A DNA stretch of 64,000 bases from an uncultured candidatus Porisulfidus sp. (GCA_965116025.1 OZ220480.1:1056001-1120000); one strand, 5' to 3'. Shown: positions 48,745 through 52,738, counted from the first letter of the stretch. A program made the numbers and translations. Notes: generated from the sequence alone by a model not told the origin.

Positions 48745-50010
48745 TCAGGCCGCCGCCTGGGCGGGTCGCTCGGATTTGCGCCGAAACCACTTCTCGGCCT
48801 CCTCCTCCCAGTCGTCCATGCGGACGTAGGAGCTGGTGCGCGGCTCGTTGATCATGTTGGGATCCACCTCCACGCCGATGCCTTCCAGAAAGTTGACCAG
48901 GCCGATGCGCTCGATCATCTCGCCACAACGCTCGTGCTCCAAGCCGTTCTCGGCCCAGAAGTCGATGGTCTCCTCGGCGAGCTCGATCAGCCGCTCGTAG
49001 TCCTCCTCGGTCTCGAGCTTCATGAACGGCACGATCATGGTGCCCATCAGGTCGCCGATCTTCAACGTGCGCTTGCCGCCGATCAGGATCGAGACGCCCT
49101 TGTCGTCTCCTGGAGACAGGGCCTTGGGCAGCACGTTCAGGCAATGCATGCAGCGCACGCAGTTTCGGTTGTCGACTTGAAGCTGGTCGTCGTCCGACAG
49201 GGACAGGGCGTTCGTCGGGCAACGCGTGATCACGTTGTCGATCAGGTACTGGCGGCCCTTGGTCTCGAGGTAGCCGGCGATGGCGTCTTGGTCCACCTTC
49301 ATGTCGTCCCGCCACGTGCCGATGATGGAGAAGTCGGAGCGCTCGATCGAGTTCATGCAGTCGTTGCCGCACCCGGACACCTTGAACTTGAACTTGTAGG
49401 GCAGGGCCGGGCGATGCACGTCGTCGGTGAAGTTGTTGAGCAACGCCCGATGGATGCGCATCTCGTCGGCGTTCGATTGCTCGCAACGGGCCGCGCCGAC
49501 GCAGGACATGCCGGTGCGGACGCAGGGGCCGGCGCCGCCGAGGTCGAAGCCGTAGTCGTTGATCTCGTCGAAGAAGTGCTGGGTGTTCTCCGTGCTGGCG
49601 CCGATGAACATGATGTTCCCGGTTTGGCCGTGGAAGGTCACGAGCCCCGAGCCCCAGCGCTCCCAGCTGTCGCCAAGCTGACGCAGAACGTCCGTGGTGT
49701 AGTAGTTGCCCGCGGGCGGTTGCACGCGCAGGGTGTGGAATTCCTTGGAGGCGGGGAAGGACGCGCCGACTTCCGAGAACCGGGGGATGATGCCGCTGCC
49801 GTATCCGTAGACGCTTACCGTCCCTCCTTTCCAGTAGCCCTTGCGGGTTTCGTAAGAGTGCTCGAGCTGTCCGAGCAGGTCGTTCGCGACGCCGTTGACC
49901 CGTTGGTCAGGGTGCTGGTCGCGGAGCCGCTTGATGCCGGAAATGAAGCTCGGCCAAGGGCCTTGCTCCAGCTCGTCCAGCATCGGCGTTTTGTGCTGTT
50001 CGTCGGTCAT
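48745..50010 (-). CDS. dsrA: Reverse dissimilatory sulfite reductase alpha subunit
   Basis: GPWPSF, WKGGTVSVYGYG, CVGAARC, PYKFKFKVSGCGNDC, CVRCMHC. Confidence 0.97.
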   Translation of the reverse strand: MTDEQHKTPMLDELEQGPWPSFISGIKRLRDQHPDQRVNGVANDLLGQLEHSYETRKGYWKGGTVSVYGYGSGIIPRFSEVGASFPASKEFHTLRVQPPAGNYYTTDVLRQLGDSWERWGSGLVTFHGQTGNIMFIGASTENTQHFFDEINDYGFDLGGAGPCVRTGMSCVGAARCEQSNADEMRIHRALLNNFTDDVHRPALPYKFKFKVSGCGNDCMNSIERSDFSIIGTWRDDMKVDQDAIAGYLETKGRQYLIDNVITRCPTNALSLSDDDQLQVDNRNCVRCMHCLNVLPKALSPGDDKGVSILIGGKRTLKIGDLMGTMIVPFMKLETEEDYERLIELAEETIDFWAENGLEHERCGEMIERIGLVNFLEGIGVEVDPNMINEPRTSSYVRMDDWEEEAEKWFRRKSERPAQAAA

Positions 50011-50719
50011 GGTTCACGTCCTCCTGTCGACACGCTTGCCAGCGCGTAGGATAAATGATTTCGGGGCAGATATGAATTTCACTAAGGGGTGAGCCTGTGA
50101 TCGCCCCATTATATTCCTTAATGAGTAGGCTCCGGCTTTCGCCCCGAACCCCGCCCGCTCGCGACCTCCTCCATGCAATTCCCCAAGCCTGCCGATTCGT
50201 CCGCGAGAGCCGGCCATCTCATGGCGCGGCGCGGCGATGTCCCGGCGGGGATTCTACAGGAGCCGATAATCAAGGGTGGCCGATCTGGCTGGAAGAACTT
50301 CTCGCGATTCGAGCGCCGCGCTTGGCGCTCGGATCCGTATTCGCGGCGCGACTCCAGATTCCTGGGCGGGGAGCGACGGGAGGGTGGCGTCTTGGATTCT
50401 GGCGCGAACCCCCGGCCCAGTGCCGCGCGCAAGTCTATGATTTCACAGACGATCATTCGTCCTATAACAGGCGGGGCGGAAAGTCAAGCGAAAACGGTCA
50501 CGAGAAAGTGACCATTTACGCTTGCGTTTTCCCGCGCTTTGGGGCATGGTCGGAGGCTCGCCGGATGGAGGCCGAGACCCGCGCGCTCCGTCCTCGCCCT
50601 TTGACCTGGATCAGGAGATCTCTCATGGAACATCATCAGCAACGAATTCCCGCCGAATCGGCTTCCGAGCGTCCGGCCCCACGGCCGCCAGCGTTTGATA
50701 TATATGGTTCGCCCCCTCC

Positions 50720-50930
50720 CTGCAAGTCGGAAGCTGAAGCGACGGTCGATCGGCTGCGCACATATATCCGGCCTCTTGATGGGAGGACGTCGCCTCCCGG
50801 GCCCCGATGGGTTTCGCACGCTCCGTCCTTATCACGATAACGGCCTCGAAGGCCTGTATCAAATCCAGGGTCTCGGAGCGTCGGTCCGACCTGTTCCGCC
50901 ATCTTTTCGCTTCTTCCCCGCAACCGATCG
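50720..50930 (-). ncRNA. Predicted bridge/seek RNA of the IS1111-type element
   Basis: Non-coding region downstream of the recombinase with hairpins flanked by segments matching the target site and the circle junction; ends approximate. Confidence 0.7.
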
Positions 50931-50964
50931 GCGGGCAGAGCCCGCCGGGATACGGAGGGAAGCC

Positions 50965-52011
50965 TCATGTCATGCGGGCTTCCTCCCGATAGGTTCCGCC
51001 GCGCCGGAGCAGCGCCCAGGCGACGCGGACGTTCTTGTTCGCCAACGCGACCGCCGCCACGTTGTCGTGGTGGCGCTCCCGCAGGCCGCGAAGCCAAGCG
51101 CCGAGCGCGTCCTCGCGCTGGTCCGAGACGCGCAATACCGCTTTCGCGCCCAAGATCAGCAGGCCGCGCAAGGCGCGGTCCCCCCGCTTGCTGATCCCTC
51201 CGAGCTTCGGCTTTCCGCCGGTGGAGTATTGCCGCGGCACCAGGCCGAGGTAGGCGGCCGCCTCCCGCCCATTGCGGAACTCGCCGCCGTCGCCCAGCTT
51301 CGCGACCAGGGCGCTGGCCGTCAGCGCGCCTATGCCCGGGATCGTCATCAGCCGCCGGCAGCCCGGATCGGCCTCGGCATGCGCCTGGATCCGCGCCCGG
51401 CAATCCCCCTCCCGCCGATCCAGCGCCCGCACCTCCTCGTAGCCTTCCGCCAGCGCCTCGCGGACTTCCGGAAGCAGGCCGTTCTCGCCGTCCTCCAGGA
51501 TCTCCGGCAGCCGCGCGCGAAAGACCCCGATCCCTTTCGGCATGACGATCCCGTACTCCTGCAGGAACGCGCGCGACTGGTTGACCAGCCGGGTGCGGCT
51601 CCGCACCAGCCGCTCCCGCGTCCGATGGCATTGCTGGATCGCTTGCTCGGCCTCCGACCGTGCCGGCGCGAAGCGCATGCTCGGACGGCTCCGCGCTTCG
51701 CAAATCGCCTCCGCGTCGCGCGCGTCGTTCTTGTTCGACTTCACGAACGGCTTCACGAAGGACGGCGCCATCAGCCGCGCGTCGTGCCCATGACGACGGA
51801 ACAGCCGCGCCCAATGGTGCGCGCCGCCGCAGGCCTCCAGCCCGACCCGGCATGGCGGCAGCTCCTCCGCGAAGCGTTCCAGCTGAGCCCGCGTGAAGCG
51901 CCTCTCCAGCGCGATCTTGCCGGCGCGCGTCATGCCGCAGGCGTGAAACGCCTGCTTGCCCAGGTCCACGCCCAGATGGGCGATGGCGAGTTGATGTAGA
52001 GTCTGCTTCAT
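50965..52011 (-). CDS. IS110-family DEDD recombinase
   Basis: GVDLGK, GLEAC, KNDARDAEAI, IPGIG, GLVPRQYSTGGK. Confidence 0.95.
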   Translation of the reverse strand: MKQTLHQLAIAHLGVDLGKQAFHACGMTRAGKIALERRFTRAQLERFAEELPPCRVGLEACGGAHHWARLFRRHGHDARLMAPSFVKPFVKSNKNDARDAEAICEARSRPSMRFAPARSEAEQAIQQCHRTRERLVRSRTRLVNQSRAFLQEYGIVMPKGIGVFRARLPEILEDGENGLLPEVREALAEGYEEVRALDRREGDCRARIQAHAEADPGCRRLMTIPGIGALTASALVAKLGDGGEFRNGREAAAYLGLVPRQYSTGGKPKLGGISKRGDRALRGLLILGAKAVLRVSDQREDALGAWLRGLRERHHDNVAAVALANKNVRVAWALLRRGGTYREEARMT

Positions 52012-52738
52012 AAGGGTCGTCCTGCTTTCGCTATGGGTTGTGATACTCTAATTGTGCCCGCTCAAGGCCAAGCAGGGAAGCGGGGCGAACCATCCCATCA
52101 CAATAAAATCGCAGAAGAAACTGACGAACGGAGGCTTCCAGGAGCGACAAGCCATGGCTATCGTCGAGACCATTCGAGACTCCCAGGCGGAACTCGCCAC
52201 GAGAGAGGACTTGCTCGCGACGCGGAGAGAGCTGAAGGCCGAGATCGTGAAGCAGGGGCTTGAGCTTCGCAACGAGTTCCACACCGCGATCAGCGCTTTG
52301 CGCGACGAGTTCCGAGGCGAGCTGCATAGCGAGATTGGTGGTCTGCGCAAGGAAATGCAGGAGCAACTCTCCACTTTGCTCTGGCGCATCCTGCTTGGCG
52401 TTGGGGTGATCGTCAGCGTTGTCGGAGGCATTGTCGGAATCGTCTTTACGCTAGTTGGCGGAAAGTAGATTCTGGAGCCCGTGGTTCTCATCCGGCTTTA
52501 CCGTCGTTGATGATGGACCCCGAATGAGGTCAGGCGCGGAGATCCTCCAGACGGCTCGTCCGGCTCCAGATGGGCGCGCGGGTCCGTTTGGGCTCGTGTC
52601 GAACATTCAGCTGTAGCGCGCGTCCTGTTCGATCAGGAAGCTGTCGCCGATGTCTCGATACGTGAACATGGGTCAGGGAAGGCCTTTGACTCGCGTCGTC
52701 GCCCGCGAAACCTTGGGTCGTTCATTCAGGCGCGCGAG

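Follow-up and report, generated by a model that had tools for sequence, protein, structure and literature searches.

An IS1111-type insertion sequence with a candidate guide RNA matching its target and its own ends in an uncultured candidatus Porisulfidus sp.

The stretch of DNA analysed here, called the window below (64,000 nucleotides (nt), GCA_965116025.1 OZ220480.1:1056001-1120000, from an uncultured candidatus Porisulfidus sp.), carries on its minus strand an insertion sequence (IS) with subterminal inverted repeats, in which a transposase gene has a long non-coding region on its 3' side. Judged by sequence comparison, the probability is about 0.9 that 50701-52099 is an intact element of the IS1111 group in the IS110 family, which would move by RNA-guided site-specific recombination. 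Its gene and ends are arranged as follows, with letters given for the element strand.

50701-52099, minus strand: whole insertion sequence, 1399 bp, with ends taken from seven full copies in the same genome and from two paralogous sites there that are uninterrupted
50965-52011, minus strand: transposase gene, 348 amino acids (aa), from the list of open reading frames and from Pfam and NCBIfam
50700 or 52100, minus strand: core base T (A on the plus strand), a single base of ambiguous position
50694-50700, minus strand: right target half ATCAAA with the core T, read directly
52100-52106, minus strand: left target half TTATTG with the core T, read directly
52094-52099, minus strand: left terminal extension GATGGG, outside the inverted repeat and complementary to RNA CCCATC
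52082-52093, minus strand: left subterminal inverted repeat ATGGTTCGCCCC, read directly and like the repeats in homologous loci
50704-50715, minus strand: right subterminal inverted repeat GGGGCGAACCAT; the 3-nt extension ATA (50701-50703) comes after it

The boundaries were obtained by a BLAST search of a 1600-bp region against the organism's own genome (2.02 Mb, a single contig). Two uninterrupted paralogous sites align to query positions 4-100 and 1500-1600 and overlap by one base, which fixes the element's ends and indicates a one-base core. On the plus strand the flanks read TTTGAT (50694-50699)-A (50700), then the element, then A (52100)-CAATAA (52101-52106). A first-pass annotation, made by a model from the sequence of the window alone, had placed the element at 50701-52100; its start is retained, while the end is corrected to 52099 plus one base of ambiguous position. 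It had also reconstructed the empty site as TTTGAT-A-CAATAA. The single-base joint of this site is borne out by the uninterrupted paralogs, but these read ATCGAA where the window reads ATCAAA, and an empty allele of the exact insertion locus was not found. Nor was an orthologous empty site found in 12 genomes of the same genus, in which a long distance separates the outer flanks and this locus lacks the target repeat. In 124 of 132 family loci the same core base stands on either side, whereas the adjacent positions agree in only 12 and 27 of them. The insertion is of the site- and orientation-specific type, with one shared base at the junctions and without a multi-base target duplication.

The 12-bp repeat (ATGGTTCGCCCC/GGGGCGAACCAT) stands 6 nt inside the left end and 3 nt inside the right end, and the same layout is seen in 134 of the 157 family model matches described below, namely the usable ones. 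The non-coding DNA measures 264 nt on the 3' side of the gene (50701-50964) versus 88 nt on the 5' side. According to the passages of PMC11187229 and PMC11208160 drawn on here, the IS1111 group is marked by the type of repeat, the position of the long non-coding region, the length of the protein and the motif GL-P----(S/T)G, and all four features are present in the element at 50701-52099. The assignment to the IS1111 type made in the first-pass annotation is upheld.

The transposase matches the Pfam families PF01548 (DEDD_Tnp_IS110, expectation value (E) 1.2e-19) and PF02371 (Transposase_20, E 9.1e-25), as well as the NCBIfam model NF033542, 'IS110 family RNA-guided transposase', with 342.7 bits against a cut-off of 140. 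Candidates for the DEDD residues are D16, E59, D96 and D99, which were read from the translation by their place within the Pfam match rather than from a residue-level alignment of the N-domain. In the motif GLVPRQYSTG, T264 aligns with the serine of the IS621 'SG' (alignment to IS621 chain 8wt6_A). In a tblastn search the nearest named relatives were plasmid genes annotated as IS4321-family transposase (43.7% identity over 95% of the protein's length) and genes annotated as IS5075-family (42.5%); full-length kinship to IS1111-type transposases is judged by the IS4321-family match. Among solved structures a phmmer search matched IS621 and ISCro4 only, through the C-terminal domain only (E ~1e-7), and no solved IS1111-type structure was among the matches.

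The 3' non-coding region encodes a candidate guide RNA with the following parts.

50739-50900, minus strand: two-armed non-coding RNA, 162 nt, candidate bridge RNA or long seekRNA, from the consensus fold, the covariance model R1 and covariation
50855-50864, minus strand: target guide 1, RNA AUUUGAUACA, in the target loop (5' strand), complementary to the target top strand TG-T-ATCAAA
50842-50854, minus strand: inner hairpin of the target loop, GGCCUUCGAGGCC, from the fold
50834-50840, minus strand: target guide 2, RNA UUAUCGU, in the target loop (3' strand), same sense as TTATTGT (6/7)
50806-50811, minus strand: donor guide, RNA CCCAUC, in the donor loop (5' strand), complement of GATGGG at the left end
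50777-50784, minus strand: second match to the left end, longer than the first, RNA UCCCAUCA (complement of T-GATGGGA), half of it within the donor-arm hairpin
50761-50767, minus strand: donor guide, RNA AUAUAUG, in the donor loop (3' strand), same sense as the right end, the core and the first base of the left end
50720-50725, minus strand: -35-like TTGCAG, 17 nt upstream of TATGAT once the ends are joined

The consensus fold was derived from eight aligned sequences, five of them distinct copies from the own genome and three from relatives (L021, L022 and L101) with transposases 66-68% identical to that of the window. It consists of two arms within two outer stems, and each arm has a stem, an internal loop and a hairpin. 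The four short matches pointed out in the first-pass annotation fall on the four strands of the two internal loops, one match per strand. That annotation had proposed folding and a covariance model across homologs as a check; the outcome was the two-armed RNA and the model R1 (162 positions), which matches 154 of 160 loci encoding a homologous transposase 45-68% identical to the window's (78/80 in genomes and 76/80 in metagenomes). The match always lies directly downstream of the transposase gene, and four of the six loci missed are contigs ending within ~110 nt of the gene. In the R1 alignments of two locus sets, 91.3% and 91.8% of the cells in paired columns can pair, versus 32-43% with the partners slid, and double-sided changes occur in 34 and 36 of 40 base pairs; these counts come from alignments fitted to the model, which biases them towards the structure, although the margin is large. 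An Rfam match to the Cis90 small RNA, which lies inside the gene, was rejected as chance (16 bits versus a gathering score of 50).

In the target loop the 5' strand ends with AUUUGAUACA, the 3' strand begins with G-UUAUCGU-GAU, and the hairpin GGCCUUCGAGGCC lies between them. On the plus strand the corresponding letters are TGTATCAAA at 50855-50863, which the RNA strand reads as TTTGATACA, and ACGATAA at 50834-50840 (TTATCGT on the RNA strand). The 5' strand of the target loop is complementary to the top strand of the target (core plus right half), the 3' strand repeats the top strand over the left half and the core, and the two target guides overlap at the core. The 9-mer of the guide is seen once in the 64-kb window, namely in the guide itself, where 0.05 occurrences are expected, and a match was obtained in five of 100 shuffles. 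A promoter and terminator scan found no terminator after the RNA and nothing other than one promoter-like pair, which the two AT-rich guides themselves form (50862-50834, minus strand) and which is regarded as incidental.

The loop strands of the donor arm match the left and right ends of the element in the same manner, with plus-strand letters GATGGG at 50806-50811 and CATATAT at 50761-50767, and these guides and their DNA partners covary across the family: the left-end variants ATGAG, ATGGA and ATGGG are accompanied by complementary RNA letters, and the variants ACAT, ATAT, ATAA, ACAC and GTAC of the right end plus core are mirrored by the same RNA letters. The guide, donor and GGCC-hairpin motifs of the first-pass annotation (the hairpin at 50842-50854) all lie in the places it indicated; the one mismatch it noted between guide 2 and the flank TTATTGT is real, and the guide-target and guide-donor matches, the order of the guides and the position of the RNA hold as well. 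Correct, too, are the letters of the TTGCAG-17 nt-TATGAT promoter that it had predicted across the joined ends. At the -35 place TTGCAG, TTGCAA, TTGCAT or CTTGCA offset by 1 nt occurs in 88 of 112 distinct ends, and CATAAT or TATAAT lies across the junction in 70 of the 112, so that a putative junction promoter is conserved in the family.

The dependence of the flanks on the guides was followed in relatives and in the family as a whole. The elements at L021, L022, L101 and L194 share their ends but differ in guides and sites, and each matches its own site (guide 2 and guide 1, respectively: L021 6/7 and 7/8; L022 5/7 and 6/8; L101 4/7 and 8/8; L194 6/7 and 7/8). L193 stands at a contig end, where the right flank alone was scored (6/8). 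In a guide-flank matrix of 8 x 8, own pairs have a mean of 10.75/15 versus 5.86 for other pairs, and the high values off the diagonal belong to elements sharing a guide or a target half. For the family test, 13 matches without a flank and 10 without a clear inverted repeat were removed from 157 model matches, leaving 134 usable loci with 99 distinct guide pairs. Over these 99 pairs, guide 1 agrees with its own core and right flank at 4.34/8 versus 2.55 when shuffled, and guide 2 with its own left flank at 5.15/7 versus 2.58; kinship among the loci inflates the family counts somewhat. None of 10000 shuffles reached the observed value for guide 1 or guide 2. When the best of five registers was allowed for guide 1 in observed and shuffled data alike, the values were 6.78 observed and 3.84 shuffled. 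Beside L101, an unoccupied near-copy of its target (TCCAACGAGAAGTGAGCCTGAAGCGG) lies just downstream of the element (~2160-2230), from which it follows that L101 also targets a repeated sequence.

The own genome contains seven full copies of the element, two of which are 100% identical and the others 99.4, 95.9, 95.6, 94.5 and 90.2%, besides fragments. The variable columns of the seven aligned tails gather in the two target guides. Between copies A and E, 9 of 17 guide bases are different, versus 53 of 1382 bases elsewhere (Fisher p 7e-9). The copies were scored for guide 2 against the left flank plus core (of 7) and for guide 1 against the core plus right flank (of 8), with the following results.

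Copy A: guide 2, 6/7; guide 1, 7/8
Copy B: guide 2, 4/7; guide 1, 7/8
Copy C: guide 2, 5/7; guide 1, 4/8
Copy D: guide 2, 3/7; guide 1, 8/8
Copy E: guide 2, 6/7; guide 1, 4/8
Copy F: guide 2, 5/7; guide 1, 5/8; gene truncated to 297 aa
Copy Gc: guide 2, 1/7; guide 1, 2/8

All copies with the A-type guide 1 (A, B, C and D) sit at related ...GT/ATCAAA-like sites, whereas E, F and the relatives L021, L022, L101 and L194 have other guides and other sites, which match their own guides. The first-pass annotation had named copies in unrelated targets as the finding that would speak against it; for the most part the same guide goes with related sites and other guides go with other sites, Gc being contrary. 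The flanks in the own genome thus appear to change with the guides, if imperfectly. Moreover, copies A and B are identical at 1399/1399 positions, while their flanks agree at only 312/425 and 348/380 aligned columns, which suggests recent insertion into paralogous sites and not duplication of a block.

In addition to the four main guides, three RNA positions outside them, two of which lie in the donor loop, track the first base of the right flank, in 107, 111 and 95 of 127 loci versus ~50 expected. They are the bases that follow guide 2 and the donor 3' guide, together with the final base of the donor 5' strand. These may be positions like the 'handshake' of IS621, or a reading of the integrated junction. 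We propose tentatively, and with rather less than even confidence, that in this clade strands are exchanged at the single shared base and that the donor loop reads not the circle junction alone but also the integrated right junction (right end-core-flank). If this were true, the RNA would check the flank during excision or serve as a handshake after insertion, which would give an explanation at sequence level for the published need for correct donor flanks, in a geometry unlike the CT core of IS621.

Taken with the published IS1111/IS621 mechanism, these features suggest how the element might move. It would excise as a circle, whose joined ends would form the TTGCAG-17-TATGAT promoter and drive expression of the transposase and the RNA. 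The RNA would then hold the circle junction in one loop and a TTATTG-T-ATCAAA-like target in the other, and the transposase would exchange strands at the single shared T. These steps are carried over from experiments on other members, as described in the parts of PMC11187229, PMC11208160 and PMC13626964 drawn on here. The label 'candidate programmable recombinase' in the first-pass annotation is a fair one.

Several observations weigh against this interpretation. The fold of a single sequence is no better than that of shuffles (z -1.6 and -1.67), a search of Rfam 15 over 50300-52500 at E<=1 gave no RNA family matching the guide RNA, and the covariation counts carry the bias mentioned above. 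Among the copies, guide 2 of D fits poorly, C needs a 1-nt bulge for its fit, the right end of E abuts position 752 of a truncated copy, and Gc, with a broken gene, is decayed and fits with neither guide. For the left end, the loop CCCAUC rather than UCCCAUCA is tentatively favoured as the real donor guide because the UCCCAUCA match is mutated in copies E, F and Gc. The lineage of copies A-D in the window's genome is an exception to the tracking of the right flank, since the three positions read G there and the flank reads A; G is the first base of the left end, which differs from the tracking positions in most of the family. Lastly, a search of sequencing runs matched the element in three runs of one study, all of them contigs and none of them RNA, and in those contig-level runs neither a circle junction nor an empty allele of the locus was seen. 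The contigs do show a paralogous uninterrupted site, with a joint from 50691 to 52100 and eight other letters between. In two of these runs (X1 and X2) the contigs carry guide letters of the E/F type exactly at the guide positions, 50834-50864, and in the third (X3) loose ends occur at the left end of the element, near 52099-52101 (plus strand).

The alternative that survives best, though we hold it unlikely, is that the element is a genuine one of the IS1111 type whose lineage is immobile here, so that its copies were spread by duplication or gene conversion of a ~830-bp repeat and its RNA is a relic. It would account for the presence of copies A, B and D within paralogs of one repeat family, for the broken genes in F and Gc together with five further fragments, and for the missing circle and empty allele in the contig-level runs. 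However, it is hard to reconcile with copies A and B being 100% identical over 1399 bp within flanks only 73% and 92% alike, with copy C in an unrelated context that has a target-like site, with the 348-aa frame and all RNA helices being kept in five of the seven copies, and with guide changes that track the flanks. A second alternative, which we consider very improbable, holds that the transposase protein alone recognises the target and that the 3' structure is regulatory or serves processing, the matches being by-products of ends and target copied into the element. The guides are indeed short (7-10 nt) and imperfect, but the hypervariable positions of the loops covary with the flanks at the level of single bases (99 guide pairs), whereas the helices covary with themselves; moreover, in the portions of PMC11187229 drawn on, the RNA was found by experiment to be essential and reprogrammable in four IS1111 members. 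Chance matches in a GC-rich non-coding tail are the least credible explanation, for although a lone 6-7-mer match is weak by itself, the 9-mer is expected only 0.05 times per 64 kb, and chance is refuted by the 0/10000 permutations, by the comparison over five registers and by the relatives, whose guides differ with their flanks.

RNA-guided recombination of an IS1111-type element, the interpretation we prefer, places it in a known kind that has been in print since 2024, and routine annotation would call its transposase RNA-guided. The closest description is that of the seekRNA elements ISEc11, ISPa11, ISKpn4 and ISPst6 (Siddiquee et al. 2024, PMC11187229, in the portions drawn on here and below). 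Like them, the element has a transposase within 330-350 aa with the GL-P----(S/T)G motif, subterminal repeats with short extensions, a long non-coding region downstream, a junction promoter and natural re-direction among close relatives; the guide complementary to the top strand likewise lies 5' of the bottom-strand guide and overlaps it in the target (PMC11187229). The size of its RNA, 162 nt, resembles the 145-170 nt of the 'long seekRNA' of IS1111 elements (PMC11187229). It differs from those four in its target, and the likeness to them is drawn from their published description and not from protein alignment. Furthermore, what those portions of PMC11187229 report is target matches only, whereas here the second loop also matches both ends of the element.

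With IS621 and ISCro4 of the IS110 group (Durrant et al. 2024, PMC11208160, in the part drawn on; structures 8wt6 and 9t56) the element shares the DEDD and C-terminal domains, the junction promoter and a two-loop RNA for target and donor, with both strands read in each loop and the core included in the guides. Unlike in these, however, the RNA lies at the 3' and not the 5' end, the guides come in the opposite order, the inverted repeats measure 12 bp instead of 2-3 bp, and one shared base takes the place of the CT core. T264 stands in place of the serine of IS621, and the similarity found by phmmer is limited to the C-terminal domain.

In case of IS4321 and IS5075, from the classic IS1111 group, the similarity extends over the full length of the transposase (95% coverage) and the end architecture is the same as in the literature, but the identity is ~43%, and host group and target are different. 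IS4321 and IS5075 are said to target Tn21-type terminal repeats.

The finding leaves the known mechanism unchanged. It enlarges the pool of IS1111-type RNA-guided recombinases, which are less studied than those of the IS621 type, by a fully specified natural set of transposase, 162-nt RNA, donor junction and target; the set comes from an uncultured, GC-rich lineage. Moreover, the seven copies can be taken together with the relatives of the same genus as a small series of natural re-targeting, in which the scaffold is near constant and 17 guide bases change, and which would be useful for finding the programmable loop positions in IS1111 RNAs.

Some further observations concern the other copies and the surroundings. 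Copy E directly precedes a 5'-truncated copy that begins at IS position 752 (G000:C1:1413619-1415667; L005 and L008). Guidance of copy E into another copy at this position was considered and rejected, as the site fits the E guides only ~2/7 and 4/8; the outer flanks of the composite fit E-type guides better (6/7 and 5/8), which suggests that it is a tandem pair whose second member lacks the first 751 bp. Five end fragments of more diverged copies (76-91%) lie on G000:C1 near 91.3, 429.1, 1240.0, 1471.6 and 1475.7 kb. Some of them carry further guide letters, and the flank of one left-end fragment, AGATCGT, fits guide 2 of the window (UUAUCGU) exactly where the flank in the window mismatches.

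The target lies within a ~830-bp repeat present ~5 times in this genome, parts of which are found in the window at 50323-50700 and 52100-52550 and paralogs of which lie at G000:C1:1697096-1697928, 595454-596239, 270367-272469 and 254690-255243. A small gene (52154-52468, 104 aa) lies ~55 nt downstream of the insertion point; its product has a coiled coil and a C-terminal membrane helix and matches protein families only weakly, with scores under the threshold (Mitofilin, CCDC90-like). In the uninterrupted form, reading from an ATG further upstream (50626) would pass the insertion point and run in frame into this gene. On the other side, the neighbouring gene at 48745-50010 (minus strand) encodes a protein resembling a subunit of dissimilatory sulfite reductase, with ferredoxin-like and nitrite/sulfite reductase 4Fe-4S domains (Pfam NIR_SIR, E 7e-35). 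Relatives of the same genus keep this gene, but away from the DNA beyond the other side of the element.

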